From: Fibrobacteria bacterium
GTDB taxonomy: Bacteria; Fibrobacterota; Fibrobacteria; UBA5070
DNA length: 64,000 nt
Direction of reading: 5' to 3'
NCBI GenBank assembly: GCA_035352895.1
Contig: DAOPYN010000017.1
Span: 1 to 64,000 of the forward strand
A program made the position numbers and the translations under genes. Below are positions 3,485 through 59,943 of this stretch, piece after piece (position 1 is the stretch's first letter; each line of letters begins with the position of its first letter). Under the pieces are notes generated by a model, which ran no database searches, was not told the DNA's origin, and saw only the letters and a list, made by a program, of their open reading frames with translations.

Positions 3485-4915
3485 TCAGGGAAGGCCGATC
3501 GAGGCGACTTCCTGGTCGACGCCCTGCTTCACCCGCAGGATGGAGATTCCCTTGGGAGATTGGGGGACCTCGAAGACGTTGAGTCCCGCCGTGGCCTGGA
3601 TGGTGCCGGACCACAGCGTGCGTCCGCGCAGGTCGGTCAGGGCGATCGTGGCCGGCCCGGCGGAAGCGGCGGTGTAGGTGCCGCTCACCGCGCCCTCCCT
3701 GGCATGGACCACCAACCTTCCGGAAACAGTCGAAGGACGTTCGTCCACCCCCGACACTCCCCACCCCGATTTCATGGCGTCCATCAGGGACTGGTCGTAC
3801 ACCTTGGCGTTGCCGCGGTCGATGATGGTGAAGTTCATGTCGCCGGTGTAGTAGGTGTCCCAGGCGAAAGGAATCACGCCATGGGCGCGTGCGGACTTGG
3901 CCACGTACTTGTAGTAGGCGACGCGCCCCTTCTTGTGGAGATCCAGGTTCGCACCGGACAACGTGGTACGCAAACCGGCTCCCCATTCCCCGATGATCGC
4001 GGGAATCCCCTTGTCGACGAACTTGCGCTTCAGGACGTTGAACTGGGAATCGACGAATACCTCCTCGCCCCAGGTGGGGTTGTGGGCGGCATCCGTGGTG
4101 GAATGGTTGCCCTGGCCCCAGTAGAAGAACTGGTTGCCCCACGACTCGTCCTTGGTCATGAGGGTGTACTGGTACGGATAGAAGTGCGCCTCGAACATGA
4201 GGCGCCCCGCCACCTTGTCGGTGGGATAGACGCTGTAGTTCGTGCGGATCAATTCGATGTCCGTGCGTGGGCCCTGGAAGATCAGCGTGCGCGTGGCGTT
4301 GTTGCCGCCGGTGGCGCGCACCGCGTCGATCATGGTCTGGTGGTAGGAATTGAGCACGCCCACGCGGTCGGCCCCGAAAGCGGTCCCGTAGGCGTCCTGC
4401 ACCGCCGGCTCGTTGGCGCTGGCGAACAGGAGGTGGTGGTCGTAGTCCTTGAAGTAGTTGGCGATCTGGGTCCAGTAGGCCTTCTGCTTCACGTTGACCG
4501 ACGCCTGCGACCCCACATCGATGTGTTCCTCCAGCCAGCCCTTGTCCCAGTGGCTGTTGAGCACCACGTACAGGCCGTCCTTGATGCAGTAGTCCACCAC
4601 CGTCTTCACTTCCTGGAGCCAGGCCTCGCTGATCACGTTGTTGCTGGCATGGGTGTCCCAACCGCAGGGGATGCGGATGGAGCGGAACCCAGCGGCCTTG
4701 GCGGCGTCGATCATCGCCTGGGTGGGGACGTGGTTGGACCAGTAGGGCTTGCCTCCGGGAGTCTCCATGGTGTTCCCGATGTTCCATCCCAATCCCATGT
4801 CGGCGGCGATGGTGGCGGCGGTGGGAAGGTCGGCGGCCTGCGAAAGGCCCACCAGCGCTCCCACCAAGGCGGCCAGGCGTGTCCCCCTGAAGTGGCGGAA
4901 ATCCATCGAATCCAT
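3485..4915 (-). CDS. Glycoside hydrolase family 5 endoglucanase/mannanase-type enzyme with Arg-rich C-terminal domain
   Basis: Signal-peptide-like N-terminus; GH5 catalytic acid/base ASANEP and nucleophile IIGEWG; C-terminal ~75 aa basic domain shared with other CAZymes here. Confidence 0.85.
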   Translation of the reverse strand: MDSMDFRHFRGTRLAALVGALVGLSQAADLPTAATIAADMGLGWNIGNTMETPGGKPYWSNHVPTQAMIDAAKAAGFRSIRIPCGWDTHASNNVISEAWLQEVKTVVDYCIKDGLYVVLNSHWDKGWLEEHIDVGSQASVNVKQKAYWTQIANYFKDYDHHLLFASANEPAVQDAYGTAFGADRVGVLNSYHQTMIDAVRATGGNNATRTLIFQGPRTDIELIRTNYSVYPTDKVAGRLMFEAHFYPYQYTLMTKDESWGNQFFYWGQGNHSTTDAAHNPTWGEEVFVDSQFNVLKRKFVDKGIPAIIGEWGAGLRTTLSGANLDLHKKGRVAYYKYVAKSARAHGVIPFAWDTYYTGDMNFTIIDRGNAKVYDQSLMDAMKSGWGVSGVDERPSTVSGRLVVHAREGAVSGTYTAASAGPATIALTDLRGRTLWSGTIQATAGLNVFEVPQSPKGISILRVKQGVDQEVASIGLP

Positions 4916-17376: not shown

Positions 17377-19082
17377 TCAGCGAGACAGGGTGGCCATGGG
17401 CACCACCGATTCCCACCCCTCGGCGCGCATGCGCAGGAACCGCATGCCGGTGGAGGCGGAAGGCAGACCGAAGATCTGCTCCTGCCCGACCACCTCGATG
17501 GTTCCCAGGGAGCGGACTTCCTTCCCGTCCAGGGAGATCAGGCTGAATTCCACCGGCCCGCGCCGGTCCAGGGTGACGCGCAGCTGGTCGCCGGAGAGTT
17601 CCACGCGGGATCCGCGGACTGGGCGCCCCACGATGCCGTTGATCTTGGTGAACATCGCCGACACCTGCTTGTCGCCGTTCATCACCAGGGTGAGGGTGTC
17701 CTTGTTGCCGGACACCGAACCCGTCCAATTGGTGAACTGGTAGTCGGTCTGCAGGGTCGCCTTCAGTTTCACGACGGTGCCGGAATCGAAGGAGGTCCCC
17801 GAAGGCGTGGCCGTGATGGTTCCCCCGGTGGGATTGTTGATCTGCAGGTTGTACTTCTTGATCTGGCTGAAGTTCGCGGTGATGTTCAGGTTCGCGTTCA
17901 CCACCACGGTGAGGGTGTCCTTGTTGCCGGAAGCTCCACCGCTCCATCCGGTGAACACGAAGCCGTTCTGCGCCGTGGCCTTCAGCTTCACGGCCGTGCC
18001 GGAGGCGAAGCTGGTTCCCGTGGGGTTGACGGAGACGCTGCCGCCGTTGGCCGCGGTGACGTTCAGGGTGTAGTTGGTGGGTTGGGGATCGGAACTGCAG
18101 TTCGCGACGCGGGCCTCGGAATGGATGGAGCTGATGGTGTTGGTCCAGGACGATCCCGGGAAAGCCTCCATGAGGCCGATCACACCGTCGGCCATGCGCG
18201 ACTTGATGGTGCTCACGTTGCCCCAGTTGGAGTTGGGGCTGGTCAGGGTGCCACCGGTGCCGTAGCCGTCGTCGGCGATGATGGGCAGCTTGGTCAGCTG
18301 GTGGACCTTGGCCCAGGTCATGGGGTTGCCGTTGGCCACGTTGTTCCCGGGCTGGGACACGCCTCCGGAAGTGTTCATGTACTTGAACTTGGACAACGGA
18401 AGGCTGGTGAACCAGTTGTCGGGAGCCCAAGGCGAAATGTCCATGGAGATTTCGGCCGAGGGCATGGCGGCCGTGATCGTGTTGGCGATCTCGGTGATGA
18501 AGCTCGCCGCGTCGGCGAAGGAAAGCGGGCTGGAGTTGCCGTTCTGGTTGGAAGCGTACTGGTAGAAGTCGGGTTCCAGGGCCCAGATCATGGGCTTGTT
18601 GCCGTACTTGGAATTGGCGTACTGGGCATAGGCCTTGTACTGGTCCAGGATCTTGGCCTTGTTCTCGCGGATGTACTTGGTGCCATCCGTGCAGAGGGTC
18701 TTGTTGGAACCCATGTTGCAGTCGGACAGGTTCATGGCGAGCTTGGCTCCCTCGGCGATGATGTACGTGTACCACACCGGCCGGGCGTTCAGGGTCTTGG
18801 CCATGTTCAGGAAGGTGCCTTCCGGGGTGTCCAGAGGCTTGGGCGCCACCTTTCCCCCTTCGTAGGCGTAGCCCACGAACATCGCCACGAAATCCAGGTC
18901 CTTGGGAATGTCCAGGTCGTTGGGGTTGGTGGTGCAACCCATGTAGCCGCACTTCTTGGTGGAGGCCTGCTTCAAGTCCACACCCACGTTGAAGCCGCAG
19001 GAGGTAAACTCCGCAGCCTGGGCCAGATTCACGGAAACCAGGGTGGCCATGGCGGCCGTGGAAAGTGCGCTCCACTTCATCG
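17377..19082 (-). CDS. Secreted carbohydrate-active-enzyme-like protein: unassigned N-terminal catalytic-like domain, two divergent InlB B-repeat domains and an Arg-rich C-terminal domain
   Basis: Signal peptide MKWSALSTAAMATLVSVNLAQAA; two ~80 aa repeats (YTLNVTAANGGSVSVNPTGTSFASGTAVKL..FTGWSGG / YNLQINNPTGGTITATPSGTSFDSGTVVKL..FTNWTGS) typical of InlB B-repeats; C-terminal basic domain. Confidence 0.6.
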
Positions 19083-26699: not shown

Positions 26700-28079
26700 C
26701 TACCAGACCGCGACCAATCCCAGAGGTGAAGGCGAACCCACCGCGGCCACCGCGTGCACGCCGCGGGACAGAGCGGGTGCTCGACCCGCGCCGTCGCGCA
26801 GGGAAACACGGGCTTCCAAGGCTCCGGTCATGGAGCGGATCTCCACCTCCTGCAACGTGCGGTCCCCGGTGTCCAGGAGCCCATCGCGAAGCGTGACGCC
26901 ACCGCGGCCGGAGCGCACCTGGGGCCGCGCGGAGGAAAGGCTCGCCACCCCATCCAGGATTCCCTGGCGGAAGGCTTCGTAGGAAGGCTTGGCGCGGTAC
27001 TGCTCGTCGAACACGAGCGCGCTCTGGCCCATGCGCCAGTAGGCGTTTGTATTGTCCGCCACGCCCCAGAAGCAGATCCAGTTGGCGCCACCGCCCACCG
27101 CGGCGGCGGCCATCTGGCGGTACTGGCGCGACTGGGTGGAATCGAAGGAGGCGTTGCGGTGGGCGCTGGTCGCCGCGGCGATGGGATCGGCGTCGCCATA
27201 GTCCACCTCGGTGATGTACACCTCCAGGCCCAGCTTGCGGTATTCGGCCACCGCCGCCTTCAGCTTGGACCAGTCGTAGGTCACGTCCGTGCGGAAGTGT
27301 CCCTGGAACCCCACCGCGTCCAGCGGGACTCCTGTGTTCAGGAGGTGCTTCACCAGCTGGTAGAAGGCCTTGGCCTTGCGCGATCCGTCCCAGAACTCGA
27401 TGCCGTAGTCGCGCAGTTCCAGCTTGCCGTTGGTGCGCTTGCGGGCAATTTCGAATGCCTTGCGGATGTAGACCGGATGCTTGCCGTAGATCTTGTTGGA
27501 GGCCGGAAGTCCCGACTTGTCCTCTTCCCAGCCCATCTTCTGCCAGGGGTTGGTGTTGGCCACGCTGGACGAATCCCAATACGACCCGTCCCACATGAAG
27601 GCCTCGTTGACCACGTTCCAGTAGTCGACCTTGGTGGCGTTCCCGTTGGAGGTCATCGCGAAGTCGATCCACTTCTGCAACAGGGTCTCCAGTTCCGAAG
27701 GCGTCCATCTCCCCTCGTTGAGCCAGGTGGGGAAATAGGTGGGGGATCCGGCCAGCAGGTGGAGGGACACCTTCTTGCCCTGGGATTTGGCGATCTCGAT
27801 GACCTTGTTGGGATTGGTCATGTCGAAGCCGACCCCGGAAAGGCCTGTGCCCTTCCACGTGTCCCAGGAAGGGTAGGAGGTGGTCTGCACCAGCCCGAAT
27901 TCGCGCCCGATCACGGACTTGACCGAGTCTGCTCGTTTCCAGGACACCACGCCCTCCTTGTCGGAAGAACCGACCTCGGCGGTGGCCCCCATCAGGATAC
28001 CGTTCTGCGTGAGACCTCCGGCACCCAATGCGGGAATGGCCGCGGCCATGGCGATGGAAAGGGTCAGATTGGAATGCAT
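26700..28079 (-). CDS. Glycoside hydrolase family 10 endo-1,4-beta-xylanase with Arg-rich C-terminal domain
   Basis: Signal peptide MHSNLTLSIAMAAAIPALGAGG; GH10 acid/base WNVVNEAF and nucleophile YITEVDY; C-terminal basic domain. Confidence 0.85.
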   Translation of the reverse strand: MHSNLTLSIAMAAAIPALGAGGLTQNGILMGATAEVGSSDKEGVVSWKRADSVKSVIGREFGLVQTTSYPSWDTWKGTGLSGVGFDMTNPNKVIEIAKSQGKKVSLHLLAGSPTYFPTWLNEGRWTPSELETLLQKWIDFAMTSNGNATKVDYWNVVNEAFMWDGSYWDSSSVANTNPWQKMGWEEDKSGLPASNKIYGKHPVYIRKAFEIARKRTNGKLELRDYGIEFWDGSRKAKAFYQLVKHLLNTGVPLDAVGFQGHFRTDVTYDWSKLKAAVAEYRKLGLEVYITEVDYGDADPIAAATSAHRNASFDSTQSRQYRQMAAAAVGGGANWICFWGVADNTNAYWRMGQSALVFDEQYRAKPSYEAFRQGILDGVASLSSARPQVRSGRGGVTLRDGLLDTGDRTLQEVEIRSMTGALEARVSLRDGAGRAPALSRGVHAVAAVGSPSPLGLVAVW

Positions 28080-28186
28080 GGAAGGCGTCTCCGGAAATGG
28101 GCGTTGAGTTGCTTGGACTCCTGGTGGGGAACTTACGGGCCAGGCCCCGGACACGCCGGGGGGAAAGCGACCCAACCCATCCATTC

Positions 28187-28203
28187 TGTATCCTTTGTAT
28201 CCT
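28187..28203 (+). promoter_or_regulatory. Direct repeat TGTATCC-TT-TGTATCC (9-bp register) 12-14 nt upstream of the regulator start codon; the same motif precedes the paralogous regulator at 35157-35172
   Basis: tcTGTATCCttTGTATCCttttccccacggATG here. On the minus strand at 35144-35173 the motif reads cTGTATCaacTGTATtgttcggaccATG. Confidence 0.45.
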
Positions 28204-28214
28204 TTTCCCCACGG

Positions 28215-29570
28215 ATGAAACACCTACGCGAATCGCTGATCGCCCGATCCGGCAGAGAAGGGCAGCCTCTGCCTTCGGTGCGAGCCCTGGCCCACGCGCA
28301 CCAGGTGACTCCCCGCACCATGCACAGGGCGCTGAAATCCCTGGAGCGGGAAGGGCTGGTCCATGCGCTGGATCGCAAGGGGTTCTTCTGGGGAAGGAAC
28401 CCTCCCCCACCCGCGCCGCTGGCCGCATCCTCCCGTTCCCGGTCGGAGGACGTGCGCGAGCGGCTCCTGGAAGACCTCCGGAGGGGAGTCTTCCATCCGC
28501 ACAAGCCCCTGCCGGACTCCCGGACCCTGGGGGAGGTCCACGGGATCGGCGCGCGGAGGATGTCGCTTTTGTTGTCGGATCTTGTCAACAACGGATGGCT
28601 GGTGCGCAAGGGGAGATCGCTCCACATCCCCCCTCCCACGCCGGGGCGCTCCCGCGCCACCGTGGCGGTGGTGTCGCGCTGCGACGAGCATGGCATGCTC
28701 CTGTTGGATTCGGAACGGGAAACGGACTTCCTGAAGTCCGTGCGGATCCAATCGCGGGAACTGGCGCTGGAACCACTCTTCGCGGGGTGGCACGAAAGCC
28801 CTTCCGGTGGACGACTCCTGGACCACCAGGGATCGCCCCTGCGTCTGGACCGCCAGCCGCTGCCGCTCCTGGGCATCCTCGCCTCCACCTGGCTGATCCA
28901 GGATCCGCAAGATCTCATCGCGCACCTGCGATCGGCAAAGGTGCCGCTTTCCGTCTGGTGGGAGCATCCCGCCTCGAGCTTTCCCCACCTCCGATCCGGT
29001 TCGCTGGTGGGTTTCAACCTTTCCTTCGGAGCGAGTGCCGGATGGGAGGCGGGCAGGCATCTGCGGACCATGGGCATCCGATCGCTGGCGTTCGTCTCGC
29101 CCTTCCACGCCTCGGAGTGGTCGCGCTCGCGCCTGGAGGGATTGCGTCAAGCGATGGAAGGGACCGGCATCGAAGTGCTGGAACGGGTGGACGCCACCTG
29201 GGAAAGCGCCTGGCACCTGCGCCAGGACGCGGGAAGCGCACCCGAAGGGGAACGCAGGCTGCGCTCCCTGGTGGAGGGCCTGGTCTCCCCGGCCGACCTC
29301 GCCGACCATCCCGACTGGGTTGTCGTCAACGACCACGTGGCCGTCCACCTGATCGGGATCTGCCGGGAACGGTCGATCCCGCGTCCGCGCATCCTCTCGT
29401 TCGACAACACATCGGCCAGCGAGGCCCACCAGTTCGACTCCTTCGAGTTCCACACCGACGGCATGGTCCGCCAGATGCTCCAGCAGACGCTCCACCCCAA
29501 CGCCAAGCTCTTCCAGGATGGCGGACTCCACGAGATGATGGGCCGGCTGGTGGTGCGCGAACGCAGGTGA
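28215..29570 (+). CDS. GntR-type wHTH transcriptional regulator with large C-terminal sugar-binding-like (LacI/PBP-type) domain
   Basis: N-terminal LPSVRALAHAHQVTPRTMHRALKSLEREGLVHALDRKGFFW (GntR wHTH); about 350-aa C-terminal domain; 448-aa paralog at 33800-35146. Confidence 0.7.
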   Translation: MKHLRESLIARSGREGQPLPSVRALAHAHQVTPRTMHRALKSLEREGLVHALDRKGFFWGRNPPPPAPLAASSRSRSEDVRERLLEDLRRGVFHPHKPLPDSRTLGEVHGIGARRMSLLLSDLVNNGWLVRKGRSLHIPPPTPGRSRATVAVVSRCDEHGMLLLDSERETDFLKSVRIQSRELALEPLFAGWHESPSGGRLLDHQGSPLRLDRQPLPLLGILASTWLIQDPQDLIAHLRSAKVPLSVWWEHPASSFPHLRSGSLVGFNLSFGASAGWEAGRHLRTMGIRSLAFVSPFHASEWSRSRLEGLRQAMEGTGIEVLERVDATWESAWHLRQDAGSAPEGERRLRSLVEGLVSPADLADHPDWVVVNDHVAVHLIGICRERSIPRPRILSFDNTSASEAHQFDSFEFHTDGMVRQMLQQTLHPNAKLFQDGGLHEMMGRLVVRERR

Positions 29571-29703
29571 CCGCGCCGATCGCCTTCCGACCTCGCGCCC
29601 CGGGATCGCGGCCGCGTTATCCATCTTTCCCTTCCATGAACCGAATCGCGGCCTCCACGCTCCTTGGCATCGTTCGGGTCTCGCCTTCGCCCCGGCCTCG
29701 GCC

Positions 29704-30885
29704 ATGGATGAAGGCATGGCCACCCACTTCCTGGGAGTGGGCTACCCCTACGGCGCCTGCGGGGTCCCCGACGAGGTCGCCGCGTGGGAAGGCGCCCAGG
29801 ACACCCTTTCGGGCCAAGCCAACCCGTTTGACTACGTGGCCCTGAACGTGTACCACACCCCGGGTCGCTACGACATGCCCGCCCCGCACCCCATGGTGGG
29901 CGCGGACACCGCCTACATGGGCATGTACGACAACGGCCGCAACTGCGGCCGCTGGATCCGCTTCGAGCTCGGCGACACCTGCGACGGGGCCAACGACGGC
30001 GCGAAGAATGCCGATTTCTGTCGCGGCGGGACCGGATGGCACCCCAACGCCTACACCGGATCCGGAGGCTACGCGATCGTCTTCGACCAGTGCACCGACG
30101 GCAACGCATGGTGCCGCGACTCCAGGTACCACCTGGATCTCCACACACCCATCCTCTCGCATCTGCGCAAGGACGGCGCGCTCCTTCCCGCGCTCGCCCA
30201 ACCGGTGCTGGGACCGGACGGCAAACCGCAAGGGGACAAGAACAACCCCTGGGCCATCTACTACCAGGTGTCCGGGTTCCTGAATCCCAAGGTCCGGTGG
30301 GAGTTCGTGCCCGCGCCCTCCTACCAGGGCGAGCCCCGCTTCTGGTTTTCCGTGGATTCCAAGCCGTACTACTACCGCCTAATGGTGACCCATCTTCCGG
30401 ACGGCATCCATGGCGTGGAGCAACTGGTGGGATCCACGTGGAAGCCGGCGAAGATGGAAGGCGACATGGGACAGCTCTGGATCCTTCCCGATCCATCCAC
30501 CAGCTCCGTGACCGTGCGGTTGATCGATGCCCACGACAAGCCGGTGATGGGCGGGCGCAGCTGGAGCATGAACTTCCCCACCGCCTGCGGCGGCGTGTGC
30601 GAGAAACCCGCCACGGCGGCCGCCAACGTGGTGGGAAGCGGAGGCGTCCTGTCCACCTCGTCGACACCGCGCAACCGATCCATCCATCCCCGCGTCCTGG
30701 CGGATGGAACCCTGTGGATTCCCGGCACGCCCCAGGGATGGATCCAACTCCATCGACCGGATGGCCGAGCACTGGAACGCCTGGAGATCCGATCGGCGAT
30801 CGCGCGTCCCACCTCCCGCGGCCTGGTCGTCGTTCGCTGGACCCACGAGGGAATCGCCCGATCCGCATTCCTCTTGCTCCCCTGA
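29704..30885 (+). CDS. Expansin-like / GH45-like DPBB-domain protein with Arg-rich C-terminal domain; N-terminal region possibly frameshifted
   Basis: THFLGVGYPYGACG (expansin D1 GACG motif), YHLDLH (HFD-like motif), aromatic-rich second domain, C-terminal basic domain; a signal-peptide-like MNRIAASTLLGIV lies in another frame just upstream. Confidence 0.5.
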   Translation: MDEGMATHFLGVGYPYGACGVPDEVAAWEGAQDTLSGQANPFDYVALNVYHTPGRYDMPAPHPMVGADTAYMGMYDNGRNCGRWIRFELGDTCDGANDGAKNADFCRGGTGWHPNAYTGSGGYAIVFDQCTDGNAWCRDSRYHLDLHTPILSHLRKDGALLPALAQPVLGPDGKPQGDKNNPWAIYYQVSGFLNPKVRWEFVPAPSYQGEPRFWFSVDSKPYYYRLMVTHLPDGIHGVEQLVGSTWKPAKMEGDMGQLWILPDPSTSSVTVRLIDAHDKPVMGGRSWSMNFPTACGGVCEKPATAAANVVGSGGVLSTSSTPRNRSIHPRVLADGTLWIPGTPQGWIQLHRPDGRALERLEIRSAIARPTSRGLVVVRWTHEGIARSAFLLLP

Positions 30886-30963: not shown

Positions 30964-32209
30964 GATGAAATCCGCAATCCGCATCGTTCCCGCACTGCTG
31001 GGTCTTTCGGCGACCGGCTGGTCGGGCGCCGTGACCACGGTGCCCTGGAACGGCCACAAGGGCGCCATCACCTTCACCTTCGACGACGGCTGCTCCACCC
31101 ATCTGACCAACGTCCTTCCCGCCCTGAAGGACCGGAAGCTCACGGCGACGTTCTTCCTCATCGGAAACTCCGATTTCTCCTCGCGCAAGGAGCAGTGGAA
31201 GGCCGCGGCCCTCGAGGGCCACGAGCTGGCCAACCACACCACCCTGCACGACGATCCGAGGTCCCTGGACTCGGCCAAGATCGCCACCGAGATCGGCGAC
31301 CAGGCCAAGGCGCTGCGCGCGGTGGATCCCGCCGTGGAAGCCGTGACCCTGGCCTATCCCTACTGCGGCACCAACGACATGGTGAACCGGATCGCCGACC
31401 GCGAGAACATCATCGCCCGCACCTGCGGCGGCTCCGGCCTCTTCGCCTGGAACTCCGTTCCCTCCGAGTGGATGAGCATGACCTCCTTCATCCTCCAGGA
31501 CGACGCTTCGGTCCCCGATGCGCTCAAGCAGATCGACAAGGCGGCCTCCGACAATTCCTGGCTGGTCACGCTCAACCACGGCATCGGCGGCGACTGGAAC
31601 TTCATCGGGACCACCCAGGCGATCTCCATGTTCGACCGTGCCGTCGCATCGAAGGCCTGGGTGGCCACCTACCAGACCGTGGCCGCCTACTGGCGCGCGT
31701 CCAAGACCATGGACACGGTGAAGGCCAGCCCGTTCTCGGCCGGCTGGGACCTGCGCTGGACCTCGCCGCATCCCCGCATGCCCAGAAGCGTGAAGCTCCG
31801 CGTCAAGCTCGACACCAACGTGTTCAGAAGCTCGCCCAACGTGACCCAGGACGGCACCCCCATCGCCCGCGAAGCGGACGGCTCCTACGTGATCGAATTC
31901 ATGAAGCTCGCCCTGAACGTGTTCAAGTCGAGTTCCGCGACCCCCCGGAGGAGCCATCCTCATCAGCCGACGGTCGTCCGATCGAACAACCTCGGAGAAT
32001 GGCATCTGGAGGGGATCGAAGACGGAGTCTACTCCTATGCGCTGCTGCAAGCCGATGGCACCAGGATCGGCGAAGGAAACCTGGTGGCGCGGGGGCGTTC
32101 GGCCACCGTCACCTCGCGTTCCGACTCCCCTCGCGCGGACGTGCTGGAATTGCGTTCTCTCACAGGTCAGGCAGACCGCAGTCTGATCCGCCTCCCAGCC
32201 CTGCGCTGA
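30964..32209 (+). CDS. Carbohydrate esterase family 4 polysaccharide deacetylase (acetyl-xylan-esterase-like), secreted
   Basis: Signal peptide MKSAIRIVPALLGLSATGWSGA; NodB motif ITFTFDDG; His motifs of CE4; Arg-rich C-terminus. Confidence 0.8.
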
Positions 32210-33799: not shown

Positions 33800-35146
33800 C
33801 TATCCGCGCAGGACCAGCCGACCCACCATTTCCTGGACCACTTCCCGTTCGCCCAGAAGCGCCGTTGGATGGAACAGGTGGTGGAGCATCCTCCTCACCA
33901 TCCCTTCGGTGTGGAACTCGAAGGAATCGAAGCGATGGGATTCGCTCGCGGAGGTCGCGTCGAAGGAAACGATCCGTGGCCGATCCCATCCGCGTTCCCT
34001 GACAAGTTCCAGAAGCACCACCGCGGCCATGTCGTTGACCACCACCCATACGGGTACATCCCGCAGAGTGGGATCGTCCAGGAACCCGGAAAGGACCCTG
34101 CGCAGGATGCGCTCGCCACCGCGCGGGCCGCGCCCGATCTCGTCCATGTGCCAACGGCTGTGGTAACGGACCTCGATGCACTCGCGGACGGTTCCCCCCG
34201 TGGCGGAAAGCGCCCTGCGCAAGCCCAAAAGTCTCGCCCGCGACCAGTCGTTTCCATGGTATGGGGAGATCCAGGCCGCTTCCGGACAACCTTCGGAGGC
34301 CAGGCGGGCACCGACGGCCTCGCCGGGCCCGGATCCGAAGGAAAGATTGAATGCCGCCATCGCGGATCCGGCCACGCGGGAGGGGCGGTAGTCCTCCACG
34401 GCACGCTCCCACCATACGGAAACGGGCAGGGACCAGCGGCGCACCGCGGCCAGCAGCCTCTGGGGATCGTGGACCAACCAAGTGGACACGATCACCCCGA
34501 TGGGAACGCCGGAGTGATGCATCTCTTCCAGCAAGGCACCGGAGGCGTCCAGGAACCGGATCCCCGCCGGGGTCTCGTGGCAGCCCACCACGTGCACGCG
34601 CAGATCCCGTTCCGATGCCTCCCGCCGCACCGATTTCATGAAATCGATCTCGCGCTCGGTGTCCAGGAGGATCCGTCCCCGATCGTCGCACCGGACCACC
34701 ACCAGCACCGCCCCCAGGGAGCCCTGCAGGACCGGGGAAGGAAGGAAGTACGACCTGCCTCGGCGCACCAGCATGCCCGCGGCGACGCGTTCTTCCAGAA
34801 ATTGTCCAATCCTTCGCGGGGAAACCCCGTAGAGGATCGCCAGTTCCTTGCGCGCGGGAAGCGCCTTGGAGGGATGGAACACCCCACGCCGAAGATCTGT
34901 CCCGAGCCTTTCCCGCCCGTCGCGTTCGGCATCGGAGATTCCCGGCGCGGCAAGGTCGGGGCGAGCCCCCCAGAAGGCCCCCTTGCGGTCCAGAACGTGG
35001 ATTTCGCCGCGCGAGGCGAGATCGCCCAACGCCTTCTGGACGGTCTGCGGAGACGCTCCGAAGGTTTGGGCCAGGGAACGGATGGAAGGGAGGGGGCCAT
35101 GGGTCGCGCGGGCTTCCAGCAGCCGTTGGACGACGAGTTCACGCAT
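33800..35146 (-). CDS. GntR-type regulator with C-terminal sugar-binding-like domain (paralog of 28215-29570)
   Basis: Colinear similarity to the other regulator along the full length (e.g. RRGVFHP, VWWE, RPRI(L/V)SFD.TSASE.H.FDSFEFHT.GMVR.ML). Confidence 0.7.
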   Translation of the reverse strand: MRELVVQRLLEARATHGPLPSIRSLAQTFGASPQTVQKALGDLASRGEIHVLDRKGAFWGARPDLAAPGISDAERDGRERLGTDLRRGVFHPSKALPARKELAILYGVSPRRIGQFLEERVAAGMLVRRGRSYFLPSPVLQGSLGAVLVVVRCDDRGRILLDTEREIDFMKSVRREASERDLRVHVVGCHETPAGIRFLDASGALLEEMHHSGVPIGVIVSTWLVHDPQRLLAAVRRWSLPVSVWWERAVEDYRPSRVAGSAMAAFNLSFGSGPGEAVGARLASEGCPEAAWISPYHGNDWSRARLLGLRRALSATGGTVRECIEVRYHSRWHMDEIGRGPRGGERILRRVLSGFLDDPTLRDVPVWVVVNDMAAVVLLELVRERGWDRPRIVSFDATSASESHRFDSFEFHTEGMVRRMLHHLFHPTALLGEREVVQEMVGRLVLRG

Positions 35147-35277
35147 GGTCCGAACAATACAGTTGATACAGTCATGCAGGCAAGGCGCGATTTCCAGTGG
35201 CGTTCACCGAACCGAACCGGCTAGGTTCCCCAATCAGGAACGGGTCTTCCACGGCGAAGCCCTCCGGAAAAGGGAAA

Positions 35278-36345
35278 CACATGTTGCGGAGATGGGTATT
35301 GATGGCGATGGCGGCTCTGGCCCCGGTCGGGGCCGCGGAGATGAAGATCGGCGCCTGGGTGGGAGGTTTCTACGGAGAGAGCTACCCCCAGCCGGAGAAG
35401 GAGAACGTGGATTCGTTCCAGGTCCTTCAGGGAAGGAAGCTGGATTTGATCAGCTACTTCGCCATGTTCAACGAATCCTGGGCCAACACCCGCCCCTACG
35501 CGAAGGTGGCCGACGCCAACGGATCCATCCTGCTGGTCACCTGGATGGCCAACGGATACCCTCTGGACTCCATCCTCGCGGGTCGTGCGGACCTGCGCAT
35601 CCGGGCCTACGCCGCCGGCATCAAGGCCTGGAAGAAGGAGGTCTGGCTGCGTCCCCTCCACGAGGCCAACGGCGACTGGTACGATTGGGGCATCGGGAAG
35701 GCGGGCTCCGGAAACACCAGCGCCAAGTGCATCGCCGCCTGGAAGCACATCGTCAAGATCTTCCGCGACTCGGCGGTGACCAACGTGAAGTGGGTGTGGA
35801 CCACCAACGCCACCAACAGCGGTTCGGGCACCAGCCTGATGGGCCACTACCCCGGCGACGACTGGGTGGACTACAACTCCATCGACGGCTACAACTGGGG
35901 AAACACCCAGAGCTGGTCCACCTGGAAGAGCTTCGAGGAGACCTTCACCCCGGCCTACTCGCTTCTGGCCAAGCAGTCCAAGCCCATCCTCATCGCGGAA
36001 TTCTCCTCCACCGAACACGGTGGCGACAAGGCCGCCTGGATCAAGGAGATGTTCCAGGTCCTCCCCACGAAGTTCCCGAAGATCATGGGCTTGATGTGGT
36101 TCTCCCAGTCCAAGAGCGCCGAAGCCGATTGGGCCCTGAACACATCCCCGGCCGCCCTGGAGGCCTGGAAGGAAGGGATCGCCCAGTTCCCCTTTTCTTC
36201 GGCTGCTCCCCGGATCGCGCCCGCGTCCGCCGCGAAGCCCGCACCCAGACTGCAAGGAGGGTCGCTCCAGTGGGGCTTGACCCCCGCCAACACGGATCGC
36301 GGCGAAACCTTCAGCGCCTCCGGTCGGTTGCAGCGCGGACGCTGA
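35278..36345 (+). CDS. Glycoside hydrolase family 26 (beta-mannanase-type), secreted
   Basis: Signal peptide MLRRWVLMAMAALAPVGAAE; GH26 acid/base region WLRPLHEANGDWYDWG; nucleophile region ILIAEFSS. Confidence 0.7.
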   Translation, partial: HMLRRWVLMAMAALAPVGAAEMKIGAWVGGFYGESYPQPEKENVDSFQVLQGRKLDLISYFAMFNESWANTRPYAKVADANGSILLVTWMANGYPLDSILAGRADLRIRAYAAGIKAWKKEVWLRPLHEANGDWYDWGIGKAGSGNTSAKCIAAWKHIVKIFRDSAVTNVKWVWTTNATNSGSGTSLMGHYPGDDWVDYNSIDGYNWGNTQSWSTWKSFEETFTPAYSLLAKQSKPILIAEFSSTEHGGDKAAWIKEMFQVLPTKFPKIMGLMWFSQSKSAEADWALNTSPAALEAWKEGIAQFPFSSAAPRIAPASAAKPAPRLQGGSLQWGLTPANTDRGETFSASGRLQRGR

Positions 36346-36348
36346 GAC

Positions 36349-38427
36349 TCAGGGAAGAACGGTGTGGAGCTGCCCTCCCAAGGGCAGCAGCCGGATGGCG
36401 ACGGATCCGTGGAGCGATTCGGGAAGCTCGGAGGTAGTCCGGGCTCCCAGCACCTGGAGAAGCTCTCCGGAAACGGAGCGCACCTCGAACCGGGCGTTCT
36501 CGGGCAAGTCGCCGGACACGATCAGCTTCCTTCCCTCCAAGCGGAAGCTGCGGACCTGGGCCACCGGTTGGACCGAAGCCACGGGAGGGGGAACTTCCTT
36601 GGCGGTCCACATCTGGTTTTTCGTGGCCCAATAGCGATACGGCATGACCTTGGCGCCATCGGCCAGGGACTTCTCGCCGCCATCCACGTCCAGCGACTTG
36701 CCGGAGCAGCCGTTGACGATCTGCAGGGTCCCGGTGCCGTCGTCGACGACCTTCCAGCGGCTGGCCGATCCGGTGTCGGCGACCACCACCAGCTCGGCGC
36801 CGTCCTGGACCGACGAGCCCGCCACCGACAGCCGTTTGCCGTCCTGCTCCAGGGCCCATTCGCCGCCGTCCAGCTTCCGCGCCTTCCACGCCTGGGAGGC
36901 CTTGCCGGAATCCGTCCACTGGACGATGCCGGAGGCCGAAGCGGTGAGCGCCTTCCCGCTGTGGGATGCCTTGAAGGTGTACCACTTGCCGTCCGACAGA
37001 GGCGAGACGGGAACGATCTCCCACTGCTGGTTGGCCTTCCCCTTGTAGATCCCCAGGGCGATGCCGCCGGGAGCGGAGGCGGGGATCTCCATGATCTTGC
37101 CCAGGGTGTTCTCGGCGATCATCCGCCACGTCCCGGGAGCGGAGGCCACCAGGTGCCACTTCTGGTTCCACGCATCCGACGGCGTGTACTGGAGGATCTT
37201 GGCGCCCACCTCCCGCGAGGCGCCGTTGACGTCCATGCGCATCCCGGACAGCACCGAGGAGAACCGGTACTCGGAATTGCCCAGGCTCTCCAGCTTCCAG
37301 CGCTGCGCGATGGTGCCGGAATCCGTCACCACGGCCACGGGACCCGTGCTGGACTTGGAGGGTGCGGCCAGGACCTTGCCGGTTTCCTTTGAACGGATGG
37401 TGTAGATGCCGGTCTGGAAGAACGGCTCGCCGCGCACCCAGCCGGAATCGGCGACCGGGTACCAGCGGTCCATCCAGGGCATGGAGACCGCCCCGTTGGC
37501 GATGCTGAAGGGAAGGAGCACCGTGCGCGAGGATGCGAAGTCGTTGACCGACCAGCGGTCGCCCATGTAGACGAAATCCGTCCCGTTGTTCCCCGGCATG
37601 GGGAACGACCACCCCACCTGCGATTCGTAGGTGTGCGTCCCCGCCACGCCCAGGGTCTTGCCCGCCGACCACGGACCGGCCAGGGTCTTGGCCGTGAAGT
37701 AGCGGTTGTCGTTGAAGTCCCAACCCGTGCACCACGACATCAGCCAGTAGTACATCCCTCCGGACTTCACGATCGCATGGCCCTCGCACTCCATGTCGTC
37801 GGAGGCGTTGCCCCGGTAGATCTCGCGGACCACCTTGGTGTAGGTGTCGTCCAGCTCGAAGAGGCTCACGTTCTGGTTGCCCTTGGTGGTGCAGATCAGG
37901 TAGGCCTTGCCGTCGGCGTCCTGGTAGACGTTCAGATCGCGACTGTCCAGTTCCAACGGCCGGAAATGCCCCTGGAACTTGTAGTCGCCGTCGATCTTGT
38001 CGGAGGTGGCCCAGGCGACCTCGGCCACACTGTAGGCGTTGTGGCCCTCGTAGTGCATCCAGATCACGAATTGGCCGGTCTTCTTGTTGTGCAGGATCTT
38101 GGCCCGCTCCACGGTGGCCTTGTTGTCCAACAACGGATCCGAATCGTGCCGGAGGATCTGCTTGACGAAGGTCCAGTGCACCAGATCCTTGGAGGAATAC
38201 AGGTTGATCCCCACGAAATAGGAGTTGTCGGCGGCCCGATCCATGCCCCAGTGGTAGTAGATGCCGTCCACCTGGATGATCCCGCCTTCGGTGGCGGCCA
38301 CCACCTGGCCACGGTTGTCCTTCCAGTCGCCTCCGGGCACGATGGGCTCGGGGCAGGCCCAGGCGCTCCCCACGGAGAGAAGCAAGGTTCCGGCGATCGA
38401 TGCGAAGGCGCGAATTCCAGCGGCCAT
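36349..38427 (-). CDS. Glycoside hydrolase family 43 (5-bladed propeller) + ricin-type beta-trefoil CBM13 repeats + Arg-rich C-terminal domain
   Basis: Signal peptide; GH43 N-terminus GIYYHWGMDRA...LYSSKDLVHW; Q-x-W lectin repeats (QRWKL, QKWHL, QQWEIV, QAWKA, SRWKV, QMWTA); C-terminal basic domain. Confidence 0.85.
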   Translation of the reverse strand: MAAGIRAFASIAGTLLLSVGSAWACPEPIVPGGDWKDNRGQVVAATEGGIIQVDGIYYHWGMDRAADNSYFVGINLYSSKDLVHWTFVKQILRHDSDPLLDNKATVERAKILHNKKTGQFVIWMHYEGHNAYSVAEVAWATSDKIDGDYKFQGHFRPLELDSRDLNVYQDADGKAYLICTTKGNQNVSLFELDDTYTKVVREIYRGNASDDMECEGHAIVKSGGMYYWLMSWCTGWDFNDNRYFTAKTLAGPWSAGKTLGVAGTHTYESQVGWSFPMPGNNGTDFVYMGDRWSVNDFASSRTVLLPFSIANGAVSMPWMDRWYPVADSGWVRGEPFFQTGIYTIRSKETGKVLAAPSKSSTGPVAVVTDSGTIAQRWKLESLGNSEYRFSSVLSGMRMDVNGASREVGAKILQYTPSDAWNQKWHLVASAPGTWRMIAENTLGKIMEIPASAPGGIALGIYKGKANQQWEIVPVSPLSDGKWYTFKASHSGKALTASASGIVQWTDSGKASQAWKARKLDGGEWALEQDGKRLSVAGSSVQDGAELVVVADTGSASRWKVVDDGTGTLQIVNGCSGKSLDVDGGEKSLADGAKVMPYRYWATKNQMWTAKEVPPPVASVQPVAQVRSFRLEGRKLIVSGDLPENARFEVRSVSGELLQVLGARTTSELPESLHGSVAIRLLPLGGQLHTVLP

Positions 38428-40649: not shown

Positions 40650-40703
40650 ACCACCCCGCAGCAATGCTGCGGGGAATCGGACCCCACGAGATTGAGCTAG
40701 TAT

Positions 40704-42401
40704 TTGGTGACTATGCAAGACGAAGATCTCCAGTTGGATGCCGCCCAAGAACCGGTGGCCCAGGACTCCCAGACCGACTCCCAAGCCGACGCCGTCGCCT
40801 CGCTCCAGGTGGACGACACCTCCGAGGACACCGCCGGTTTCGATCCTGCTGCCCTCGCCCAGGAAACCCAGGACACCCTGGCACAGGCCGACGACGATGT
40901 CGAGGACATCGTCGAGCCGGACCCGCCGCTGCCCGATTTCACCTTCGAGCAGGCCTCCGATACCATGAAGGAAGCCGTGGCCAAGCAAGGCTGGACCGCA
41001 CCCATGCTGGTGCAGCGCAAGGCCATCCCGTACCTGTTGGCCGGCCAGGACCTGATCACCCAATCCCGGACGGGATCCGGCAAGACCGGCGCCTTCATGA
41101 TCCCACTGGTGGAGATCTGCGAGATCAGCCACCCCGAACCCCAAGCCCTGATCCTGGTCCCCACCCGCGAGCTGGCTCTCCAAGTGGCCCGCGAGGCGGA
41201 ACTGATCGGTGCATCCAAAGGGGTGAGGTCGGTGGTGGTCTACGGCGGCGTGGGCTACGAGAAGCAGATCGAAGGCCTGCGCGACGCCCACATCGTGATC
41301 GGCACTCCCGGACGCGTGATCGACATGATCCAGAAGGGGCACTTCAAGCTGCGCTCGGTGCGCGACCTGGTCATGGACGAGGCGGACGAAATGCTTTCGA
41401 TGGGGTTCTACCCCGACATGGCACGCATCCGCCAGATGCTCCCCAAGGACCGTTGCACCTACATGTTCTCGGCGACCATCACCGAGAACGTGAAGCACTT
41501 GGCCAGGGAATTCCTGCGCAATCCCAAGTTCCTGTCGCTTTCCCAGAAGAAGCGCGCGGTGGACGCCATCAGCCACCGCTACGTGGTGGTGGACAAGCTC
41601 GCCAAGGACAAGGCCGTGTTCGAAATCCTTGAACACGACCATCCGGAAATGGCGTTCATCTTCTGCAACACCAAGCGCGACGTGGCGTACCTGTCCGACT
41701 ACCTGCGCTCGTGGGGACTCTCCGCCGAGCCCTTCTCCGGCGACATGAGCCAGCAGGCCCGCGAAAAGGTGATGAACCGCTTCCGCAAGCGCGAGACCCG
41801 GTATTTGGTCACCACGGACGTCGCCGCCCGCGGCATCGACATCTCGGACATCCCCTGCGTGATCCAGTACGAGCTCCCCATGGAGCCCGACGTCTACGTG
41901 CACCGCGCCGGCCGCACCGCCCGTGCGGGCAAGTCCGGCGTGGCTTGGACCGTGGCCTCCGAGCTGGAAGAGCTTGGCGTCAAGGCCATTGGCCGGCGCT
42001 TCGACATCCGCTTCGAGAAGGTCCCCGCCGCCAAGGCGGAATCCGCCGGGGCCATCCTCCTGGAGCGCTGCGTCGGCCTGCTCGAGCGCTCCGACCGCGA
42101 CTCCAGCCGCGCCGTCCGCCGCGGTGCGGAGAAACTGGAAAAGCTCCTTCCCGAGCTTCTGGAATCGGAATCCACCCGCATGGGCCTGGCGTTGCTCCTG
42201 TCCAAAGCCTACCGCGAGGAATTCTACGGCCAGAAGGACGCCTCGCTCACCGGCCAGGAGATGGCCAAGATCGGCGTGGAAGAGGAAGGCGAAGAACGCC
42301 ACCACGGTGGAGGCGGACGCCACCATGGAGGTGGCTCGCACGGTGGACGTTCCGGTGGCGGTGGCAAGTTCGGCGGAGGCGGGGGACGCCGCAGACGCTG
42401 A
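40704..42401 (+). CDS. DEAD-box ATP-dependent RNA helicase with Gly/Arg-rich C-terminal tail
   Basis: Q-motif, Walker A GSGKTGAF, DEAD, SAT, HRAGRTARAG; C-terminal HHGGGGRHHGGGSHGGRSGGGGKFGGGGGRRRR. Confidence 0.9.
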   Translation: MVTMQDEDLQLDAAQEPVAQDSQTDSQADAVASLQVDDTSEDTAGFDPAALAQETQDTLAQADDDVEDIVEPDPPLPDFTFEQASDTMKEAVAKQGWTAPMLVQRKAIPYLLAGQDLITQSRTGSGKTGAFMIPLVEICEISHPEPQALILVPTRELALQVAREAELIGASKGVRSVVVYGGVGYEKQIEGLRDAHIVIGTPGRVIDMIQKGHFKLRSVRDLVMDEADEMLSMGFYPDMARIRQMLPKDRCTYMFSATITENVKHLAREFLRNPKFLSLSQKKRAVDAISHRYVVVDKLAKDKAVFEILEHDHPEMAFIFCNTKRDVAYLSDYLRSWGLSAEPFSGDMSQQAREKVMNRFRKRETRYLVTTDVAARGIDISDIPCVIQYELPMEPDVYVHRAGRTARAGKSGVAWTVASELEELGVKAIGRRFDIRFEKVPAAKAESAGAILLERCVGLLERSDRDSSRAVRRGAEKLEKLLPELLESESTRMGLALLLSKAYREEFYGQKDASLTGQEMAKIGVEEEGEERHHGGGGRHHGGGSHGGRSGGGGKFGGGGGRRRR

Positions 42402-58140: not shown

Positions 58141-59943
58141 ATGAAATTCGGATTCAAACTCGCCCTGTTCGCAACGCTTTCCGGCACCGTCGCCGCCCAG
58201 GCCCAGAAATTCGCTCCCGCCGACTACCAGAAGGCGCTGTGGATGACCACGCGCTTCTACGGTGGCCAGCGCTCCGGACATGGCCCCAACTGGCTTCTGA
58301 TGGACCACAAGTACAAGGTCTCCTACGTGCGCGACAGCGCCGACGGCCGCGACCTGGTGGGTGGGTGGATGGACTGCGGCGATTTCCCGCTGTTTGGCCA
58401 GACCTTCTTCTACAGCACCTACGCCCTGCTCCAGGCCTACGACGCGTTCCCCACCGGATTCCCCGACCAATACCACGGGTTCGACTACAGCGACTACGCC
58501 GCCGCCAAGGACTTCACCTACGGCGCCAGCCAGCCCGATGGCATCCCCGACCTCCTCCAGGAAGTGAAATACGCCACCGACTGGATCCTCAAGGCGACGC
58601 CGGACAACCAGACGTTCTACTTCCAGAAGGGAACGGGCGGCAACTACAACGGCACTCCCTCCAAGCCCTACGGCGAGCACGGTCGCTGGGTGACCTCCGG
58701 ATTCTACAGCGCCGAATTCGAAGCCATCGAGGGCGGCGAATACGACCGGGGCCGTCCCATCTTCAAGCTGGGCAAGAGTTCCGGACTCCCCGGAGAGGTG
58801 GTGATCAACGACGGCTCCATGCCCTCGTTCGCGGCGGCGGCCCTGGCATTGATGTCCATCCACTACCGCAAGTACGACGCCAAGTACGCCGACACCTGCT
58901 TGGCCCACGCACGGATCGCCTTCGACTACGCCAAGGCCCAGAACAGGACCGGCGGCACGGGCTTGACGGGATTCTACGGCGGCAACGACAAGATGGACGA
59001 CGACATCGTCACCGCCGCCTCGAGCCTTTACAAGGCCACAGGCGAGCAGACCTTCAAGGACTTCGCCGTCCAGAAGAAGAACTTCAGGATCAACAAGGGC
59101 TACACCCTTGCCTACTCCACCAACGACGATCTGGCCCTGTACACGGGCTGGCAGTTCGCGGGGATCCAGGAATACAAGGATTCCCTGCGGATCGGATTCG
59201 TGGACCGCTACAAGAGCAAGGCCACGGGCGAAGCCGGCCTTTCCACGATCGGCGACAAATGGGGATTCCTGCGGTATCCGGCAAACCAGGCCTTCGTGGC
59301 CAGTCTCTACTCCAAGGCCACGAACGATGTCGGCTACGAAACCTTCATCTACAACCAGGTCGACTACATCATGGGAGCCAATCCCCCCAAGCAGGCATTC
59401 ATCGTCGGATTCTGCTCGGGCTGTTCCAAGACCGCCGATTGGCCCCACCATCGCAACGTGTACTTGAGCGACATGGACAATCCCAAGGCGATCAAGGCGA
59501 TCCCCGCCCGCAACAAGGAATTCGGGTACATGCTGGGCTTCACCAACAAGATCGCCGACAGCCTCAACCAGTACATCGACAACTACCAGCAGACGGAAGG
59601 CGGCCTCGACTACAATGCAGGGCTGGTGGGAGCGCTGGGCTACATCAACTCCAAGCTCAATCCCGTGGACACGTCCAAGCTGGGCGCAAGCGGCGTGCAG
59701 GTCGCACGCCCCCGGCAGGCCAATGCGCTGGTGCACCGCACTTCGCAGGGCCTGGTGGTCTCGCTGCCCTTCGGGGAGGCGATGCGCTCGGTGGTCGCCA
59801 AGGACCTCCGGGGACGCGAGATCGCTCGGTTCGCCCCTAACCGAACCGAATTGGTCTGGGACGCACCGGCGGGAACCTGGCTTTTGGAGGTGGTCTCGGG
59901 CTCCGGTACGGTCCACCGGACCAGGACGGTGGTCGCCCGCTAA
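58141..59943 (+). CDS. Glycoside hydrolase family 9 endoglucanase with Arg-rich C-terminal domain
   Basis: Signal peptide MKFGFKLALFATLSGTVAAQA; GH9-like DLVGGWMDCGDF and K-TADW-PHHR signature; C-terminal basic domain. Confidence 0.8.
   Translation: MKFGFKLALFATLSGTVAAQAQKFAPADYQKALWMTTRFYGGQRSGHGPNWLLMDHKYKVSYVRDSADGRDLVGGWMDCGDFPLFGQTFFYSTYALLQAYDAFPTGFPDQYHGFDYSDYAAAKDFTYGASQPDGIPDLLQEVKYATDWILKATPDNQTFYFQKGTGGNYNGTPSKPYGEHGRWVTSGFYSAEFEAIEGGEYDRGRPIFKLGKSSGLPGEVVINDGSMPSFAAAALALMSIHYRKYDAKYADTCLAHARIAFDYAKAQNRTGGTGLTGFYGGNDKMDDDIVTAASSLYKATGEQTFKDFAVQKKNFRINKGYTLAYSTNDDLALYTGWQFAGIQEYKDSLRIGFVDRYKSKATGEAGLSTIGDKWGFLRYPANQAFVASLYSKATNDVGYETFIYNQVDYIMGANPPKQAFIVGFCSGCSKTADWPHHRNVYLSDMDNPKAIKAIPARNKEFGYMLGFTNKIADSLNQYIDNYQQTEGGLDYNAGLVGALGYINSKLNPVDTSKLGASGVQVARPRQANALVHRTSQGLVVSLPFGEAMRSVVAKDLRGREIARFAPNRTELVWDAPAGTWLLEVVSGSGTVHRTRTVVAR

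Follow-up and report, generated by a model that had tools for sequence, protein, structure and literature searches.

Seven secreted proteins of a Fibrobacteria genome region share a C-terminal tail that is probably a diverged type IX secretion signal

Seven genes in a 64-kb stretch of DNA of a Fibrobacteria bacterium (GenBank assembly GCA_035352895.1, contig DAOPYN010000017.1, positions 1 to 64,000; GC content 64%), referred to below as the window, encode proteins that end in a C-terminal tail of approximately 68–75 amino acids (aa). Judged by profile comparison, these tails are members of one family and are homologous to the type A C-terminal domains (CTDs) of type IX secretion systems (T9SS). 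On the basis of the sequences and structural models, each tail is probably a diverged type A CTD and serves as a signal for export across the outer membrane. The tails are an expected feature of the phylum; they belong, in diverged form, to the group made up of T9SS type A CTDs and the Fibrobacter basic terminal domain (BTD), and are not a new system or mechanism.

The seven tails as one family

All seven open reading frames (ORFs) and their C-termini were found at the coordinates given in an earlier note on this DNA, in which a common C-terminal domain had been proposed for the same proteins. Pfam searches assigned six of them to (i) GH5, (ii) Flg_new_2/InlB B-repeats, (iii) GH10, (iv) GH43 with RicinB (CBM13), (v) GH9 and (vi) CE4; the seventh is a protein designated here Exp. 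A Sec signal peptide is readable in six of the seven proteins, and Exp has one out of frame. According to the boundaries set by hidden Markov models (HMMs), the tail ends 0–5 residues from the stop codon in every case. The C-termini lie where the note had placed them, but the CE4 tail spans approximately positions 31982–32209 and not 32080–32209.

At the level of single sequences, the similarity of the tails is low. Pairwise BLAST gave results near noise, with GH5-InlB as the sole clear pair (E 4e-5), and a simple MAFFT alignment of all seven was poor, with those of CE4, Exp and GH10 misaligned. Profiles of orthologue tails were used in place of pairwise comparison. Orthologues of the GH43-CBM13, GH9 and CE4 proteins were gathered, the close ones originating from Fibrobacteres/Fibrobacterota metagenome-assembled genomes (MAGs) and from metagenomes of activated sludge and other sources, and those of GH10 and Exp were taken from syntenic or related loci. 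An HMM trained on the GH43-orthologue tails alone (other window tails excluded) was run against the 594 six-frame ORFs of the window and found the tails of InlB (E 9e-6), GH5 (E 1.2e-4) and Exp (E 3.8e-4). Each of these matches covered the very end of the protein; the next-best one had an E-value of 0.6, so that no false positive was obtained. Iterative HMM searches of the window and the related loci got no further than four of the tails, leaving GH9, GH10 and CE4 at E-values of 0.1–0.5.

This stall was resolved by profile-profile comparison. In hhalign, the GH43 tails were matched by the orthologue tails of GH9 (E 1.7e-10, probability 96.9%), CE4 (a profile of 35 orthologues, matched over 79 columns; E 5.4e-8, probability 94.8%), Exp (E 3.5e-6, probability 87.5%) and GH10 (a profile of five orthologues; E 1.2e-5, probability 81%, with a score of 31 where shuffling gave at most 14.5). 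As a control, the columns of each alignment were shuffled 40 times with the composition preserved; the maximum scores of the shuffled profiles were 11–21, compared with 31–53 for the real ones, and the family therefore extends beyond compositional bias. Moreover, one glycine is invariant in 47/47 jointly aligned tails, all seven window tails among them. The note's proposal of one domain on seven proteins is borne out jointly by the ORFs, the HMM, hhalign and the invariant glycine, despite the weak pairwise similarity.

Relation to type A CTDs and to the Fibrobacter basic terminal domain

The link to T9SS was provided by orthologues of the tailed enzymes. In GH43-CBM13 orthologues of Sporocytophaga and Ohtaekwangia (Bacteroidota), PF18962 (Por_Secre_tail) is found at the position equivalent to the tail. 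The same was observed in GH9 orthologues from Chitinispirillia/Chitinivibrionales MAGs, in one CE4 orthologue and in a GH10 orthologue on a metagenome contig. A GH10 orthologue in the related locus L007 (44% identical) has a canonical ‘FPNP...YNLTG...GLYLMRI’ CTD. The orthologues of the GH43-CBM13, GH9, CE4 and GH10 proteins form a continuum from window-type tails to tails called as PF18962. When the two kinds were compared with hhalign, window-type GH43 tails matched PF18962-positive tails with a probability of 95.9% (E 5e-9), and window-type GH9 tails matched PF18962-positive GH9 tails with a probability of 98.5% (E 2.2e-15).

Scans of single tails pointed in the same direction. TIGR04183 was matched by 9 of 32 GH43-orthologue tails (best E 9e-8) and PF18962 by 7 of 47 mixed tails, with no other family recurrent. 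Within the window, the GH5 tail alone scored on TIGR04183 (20.8 bits, the cut-off being 23), and the other six gave no match to it. A profile of the GH43 tails compared with all PDB sequences was matched from end to end only by CTDs of RgpB (5hfs, 7pq4, 5ag8 and 5ag9); the mirolase CTD was matched over part of the profile and an uncharacterised protein at its C-terminus, all with marginal E-values (0.02–0.5). The type A CTD, as exemplified by that of the P. gingivalis gingipain RgpB, resembles the window tails in its length (~70 aa), in forming the very C-terminal end of enzymes secreted via Sec and in the presence of an ‘x-D-x-x-G-R/K-x’ β3-β4 loop, followed by a ‘G-x-Y/W/V-x-x-R’ strand. It differs in that the window tails have no N-terminal ‘PNP’ motif and that Lys is nearly fully replaced by Arg in window-type tails (9–12.5% R, 0.8–2% K).

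The tail fold is predicted to be a seven-stranded immunoglobulin (Ig)-like β-sandwich. AlphaFold2 gave seven strands, as judged by strand count only, both for the GH43 tail (pLDDT 86) and for the most deviant one, that of CE4 (pLDDT 84), and solved T9SS CTDs are 3+4 β-sandwiches (PMC11285876). Foldseek searches of PDB gave weak matches (E 0.01–0.5), among the top ones the CTD of RgpB and, from structures of the T9SS translocon, the chains of bound substrate CTDs (8gl8_D, 8gl6_D and 8glj_D). The invariant glycine is placed two residues ahead of predicted strand 4 in both models, and HMMER aligns it with the G of the RgpB segment ‘IFDMNGRRV’, that is G699 (numbering counted back from K736). The RgpB mutation G699R stops secretion, and this glycine of the β3-β4 loop is needed (PMC11285876). 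It is this glycine, together with the aromatic/Arg strand, that survives the extreme divergence of the tails.

Concerning composition, Arg makes up 5.6–15% of the tails versus 1.5–5.7% of the mature parts of the proteins. Window-type tails contain 12.5% R and 0.8% K, and PF18962-positive tails 3.6% R and 7.3% K, with a similar K+R total in both sets. Since Lys is nearly absent and the total is similar, the Arg-rich look is largely a GC-driven replacement of Lys by Arg in the usual Lys/Arg-rich CTD composition. The isoelectric points (pI) of the seven tails are 11.9, 11.5, 11.1, 9.2, 8.5, 6.2 and 5.7 (above 9 in four of the seven), and their net charge ranges from -1 to +6. The description of the tails as basic and Arg-rich therefore suits five of them (pI 8.5–11.9) and the enrichment in Arg, but not the InlB (pI 6.2) and CE4 (pI 5.7) tails, which are not basic. 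The last residue is Pro in 22/33 GH43 and 15/38 GH9 tails and in none of the PF18962-positive sets; the ending ‘-V-[LV]-P’ is very frequent in the lineage, and the terminal Pro may represent the form that the C-terminal recognition motif takes in this lineage. In P. gingivalis, the conserved basic residue of the C-terminal strand motif is Lys; within the last eight residues of the tails in three orthologue sets, Arg occurs in 19/33, 19/38 and 23/35, and Lys is rare.

A shorter relative of the tail was found within the genus Fibrobacter. GH43 orthologues of Fibrobacter sp. end with a Lys/Arg-rich tail of ~45 aa (‘IIYDLNGRVIKR...GVYLVKK’, median pI 9.9) at the equivalent position. In hhalign comparisons with 30 such short tails, the GH43 tails gave an E-value of 6.5e-5 (probability 64%) and the GH9 tails one of 1.3e-6 (90.5%), the match with window-type tails being limited to the β3-β7 part; the short tails also align with PF18962-positive tails (E 1e-6). 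Raut et al. (2019) proposed that F. succinogenes BTD/Fpm-1 and the T9SS signal of TIGR04183 are the same, and they noted no BTD peptides in the mature enzymes of this bacterium (PMC6851124). According to Abdul Rahman et al. (2016), the BTD is present in cellulases from every member of the Fibrobacteres known at that time, with genomes of 37–54% GC (PMC4704652), and T9SS has been reported for Fibrobacterota (PMC11285876). The window tails are located on GH5, GH9, GH10, GH43 and CE4 enzymes of a Fibrobacteria MAG, and they share with the BTD the phylum, the kinds of enzymes (GH5, GH9, GH10 and GH43) and the C-terminal location; the BTD is usually basic. The window tails differ from it in being full-length, Arg-only and, in two of seven cases, not basic. 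The suggestion that the tails resemble the Fibrobacter BTD and are candidate T9SS sorting signals fits well, because the data (the hhalign homology to Fibrobacter sp. tails and to type A CTDs at the same position in Bacteroidota/Chitinispirillia orthologues) and the literature (PMC6851124, PMC4704652) agree. The published idea that the BTD is a T9SS CTD would thereby be extended from Fibrobacter to a distant branch.

Two further known domains were compared with the tails. The T9SS type B CTD (TIGR04131) is also a C-terminal T9SS export signal, but the tails do not match it at E ≤ 10, and there are no adjacent PorP/SprF-type partner genes within the window. The FlgD Ig-like domain (PF13860), frequent at the C-termini of secreted proteins of the FCB group, has the same small β-sandwich fold. 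Weak FlgD matches were obtained for the GH5 tail (NF009277) and in the fold search (3c12/3osv), and PF13860 is carried by one GH43 homologue (P0091); however, none of the seven window tails matches PF13860, and the profile links to Por_Secre_tail are consistently stronger.

Proposed export route, range of tagged proteins and competing explanations

If the tails act as T9SS signals, the N-terminal signal peptide would take each enzyme via Sec into the periplasm. There, the T9SS translocon, formed by SprA/Sov with PorV and driven by PorLM/GldLM, would recognise the folded CTD through the β3-β4 loop, with its invariant glycine, and the C-terminal strand. After passage of the enzyme across the outer membrane, a sortase of the PorU type would probably cut off the CTD, and the enzyme would either be set free or become attached to vesicles or the cell surface. 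For this lineage, the machinery, recognition, cleavage and attachment are proposed by analogy with Bacteroidota and with F. succinogenes proteomics.

The tail is not confined to enzymes of plant cell wall degradation. In related loci it was also found on S8 peptidases, a GH29 fucosidase, GH2, BNR/sortilin proteins and unknowns. Its occurrence on peptidases and BNR/sortilin proteins indicates a tag of secreted proteins in general, and the earlier view that it marks a whole secreted fibrolytic set is valid as far as its presence on several enzyme families is concerned, but not as to a restriction to fibrolytic enzymes. A lineage HMM detected a C-terminal tail in 168 of 355 orthologues, of which only 5 had a precomputed PF18962 call, meaning that standard annotation misses this subfamily. 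Thus, in an uncultured, high-GC Fibrobacteria lineage of activated sludge and other environments, Por_Secre_tail models overlook almost all cargo of the T9SS type. A profile tuned to the lineage would recover secreted carbohydrate-active enzymes (CAZymes) and peptidases and improve the prediction of surface- or vesicle-bound fibrolytic enzymes.

A wider search was less informative. The profile of 47 tails, compared with 1.84 billion representative sequences, gave 1,929 matches at E ≤ 1e-3, the top of which consisted of giant multi-repeat proteins (WD40/NHL-like and PPC-like), with a C-terminal domain match in only 10 of 149. Such proteins sum up many weak matches, and hence no clean census of tagged proteins was obtained. 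The ‘D-x-G-R ... G-x-Y’ pattern recurs in unrelated β-repeats and inflates whole-protein E-values. A single giant repeat protein contained up to 45 weak stretches matching the tail profile, with repeats of the form ‘v.vy.pdG..l...G.Y.v.v’ (PPC-like) or WD40/NHL-like.

Several observations weigh against an export function. All seven window tails score below the curated cut-offs (operational thresholds) of TIGR04183 and PF18962. The Foldseek matches, besides being weak, are shared with generic Ig-like domains (CopC, FlgD and many accessory β-sandwiches of glycosidases). The tails often end with Pro and lack the terminal Lys typical of Bacteroidota CTDs, and no T9SS component was found in the 64-kb window or in nine related loci (3–22 kb each, ~190 kb). 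The same observations would suit an Ig-like accessory or anchoring domain, binding to the surface or to polysaccharides as in the older view of the BTD; such a domain would share ancestry with CTDs but would not be used as a T9SS export signal in this lineage. This is considered unlikely, given that unrelated enzymes and peptidases carry the tail strictly at their very C-terminal end, that its position is equivalent to that of PF18962 in orthologues and that the functionally essential β3-β4 glycine is conserved; the lack of BTD peptides in mature F. succinogenes enzymes (PMC6851124) also speaks against it. A quite improbable reading is that the tails represent a re-tuned CTD subtype (Arg-only, without PNP and often with a terminal Pro) that has co-evolved with a diverged recognition apparatus or is handled by one independent of T9SS. 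If true, this would be a separate sorting class whose cargo is invisible to current annotation.

Two other explanations carry very little weight. The mostly non-significant pairwise BLAST results, the poor plain alignment and the dominance of repeat proteins in the large profile search might indicate that the tails resemble each other in composition only, as Arg-rich, β-prone and partly disordered high-GC linkers without common origin. This is highly improbable, considering that the shuffled profiles scored far below the real ones, that the HMM found three other tails and nothing else among the window ORFs, that two tails gave confident seven-strand models and that one glycine is invariant throughout; the shuffled controls and the predicted folds refute this reading. 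It is similarly hard to credit that the tails are another C-terminal signal, i.e. a T9SS type B CTD, a PEP-CTERM/exosortase, LPXTG, GlyGly-, MYXO- or other CTERM signal. Nothing specific speaks for any of these beyond the C-terminal location of the tail on secreted proteins; no such NCBIfam model was matched even at E ≤ 10, direct reading of the tails revealed neither a hydrophobic helix at the end nor a PEP or LPXTG motif, and all profile links lead to type A CTDs. A diverged type A CTD serving as a T9SS export signal is therefore the preferred, and probable, interpretation of each tail.

Tailed genes and their surroundings

The seven tailed genes (Table 1) are dispersed between housekeeping and other genes of the window. 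Their neighbours, recognised by inspection and from the annotation of the syntenic locus L001, include threonyl- and methionyl-tRNA synthetase genes. Other genes of the window encode an arginine decarboxylase, a TolC/HlyD/ABC-2 efflux set, a DEAD-box helicase, a squalene/phytoene synthase and glycosyltransferases.

Table 1 Coordinates of the C-terminal tails and associated features in the window
Feature	Position	Strand	Glycine codon	Evidence and remarks
GH43 + RicinB/CBM13 secreted enzyme with Sec signal peptide MAAGIRAFASIAGTLLLSVGSAWA	36349..38427	-		Pfam PF04616, PF14200, PF00652; orthologues
Tail of GH43-CBM13 protein	36349..36555	-	36466-36468	HMM boundaries; AlphaFold2 pLDDT 86 with 7 strands
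Tail of GH5 cellulase (gene 3485-4915)	3485..3724	-	3623-3625	TIGR04183 20.8 bits, E 2.9e-4; HMM E 1.2e-4
Tail of InlB-B-repeat (Flg_new_2) protein (gene 17377-19080)	17377..17613	-	17524-17526	HMM E 9e-6
Tail of GH10 xylanase (gene 26700-28079)	26700..26906	-	26823-26825	hhalign E 1.2e-5
Tail of unclassified ‘expansin-like’ protein Exp (ORF 29704-30885)	30673..30885	+	30763-30765	HMM E 2.6e-5 to 3.8e-4; hhalign E 3.5e-6
Out-of-frame signal peptide of Exp gene, MNRIAASTLLGIV...	29636..29703	+		Three-frame translation
Tail of CE4 deacetylase (gene 30965-32209)	31982..32209	+	32057-32059	Acidic, pI 5.7; hhalign E 5.4e-8; AlphaFold2 pLDDT 84, 7 strands
Tail of GH9 endoglucanase (gene 58141-59943)	59719..59943	+	59812-59814	hhalign E 1.7e-10 vs GH43 tails
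Possible half-tail of GH26 enzyme (gene 35281-36345)	36244..36345	+		By eye; HMM E 7.7, not significant

Exp (29704–30885, +) had no Pfam, NCBIfam or PDB sequence match, and its ‘expansin-like’ label is unconfirmed; the sole hint of a fold of the DPBB/expansin type is a ‘GMATHFLGVGYPYGACG’ motif near the N-terminus, and the family is kept in the related loci L001 and L004. The orthologues of both loci have an intact signal peptide in the correct frame, so that a 1-nt indel close to a GGG run is implied for the window. The L001 orthologue is itself split into two ORFs at a different place, and the frame breaks may be assembly indels or signs of pseudogenisation. The Exp tail is ~6 residues shorter between β4 and β6, and that of the L004 orthologue is full-length. 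In the InlB-B-repeat protein (17377–19080, -), the N-terminal domain of ~300 aa had no PDB match; it showed a weak Pfam match to Apiosidase-like (GH140; E 0.009) and may be an unclassified glycosidase.

An eighth secreted enzyme, GH26, ends like the first half of the tail, a few residues past a ‘...SASGR’ glycine motif, and its stop codon is 3 nt from that of the convergent GH43 gene. In L001, which comes from an 82%-related genome, the GH26 orthologue is truncated alike (‘VDPVGRRRTAP’) despite a 70-nt spacer.

Two paralogous regulator genes adjoin CAZyme genes of the window, one (28185–29570, +) next to the GH10/Exp/CE4 genes and the other (33800–35203, -) next to the GH26/GH43 genes. Both products contain a GntR helix-turn-helix domain; a Peripla_BP_3 sugar-binding domain was found in the former, and the C-terminus of the latter is similar to it by eye only. 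This arrangement of regulator and CAZyme genes is kept in L001, L003 and L004, and the two GntR proteins are likely local regulators of the adjoining CAZyme genes. In the related loci L002 and L005, tailed enzymes (a fucosidase and unknowns) are adjoined by DUF4423 genes, DUF4423 presumably being the Fibrobacter paralogous family TIGR02147.

Three further genes are located elsewhere in the window. A leucine-rich repeat (LRR) protein fused to a Ser/Thr kinase domain (943–2229, +) and a second LRR protein with a weak BamE-like C-terminus (62805–63998, -) are unrelated to the tails. The DEAD-box helicase (40701–42401, +) has a C-terminal low-complexity stretch rich in Gly, Arg and His (…HHGGGGRHHGGGSHGGRSGGGGKFGGGGGRRRR).

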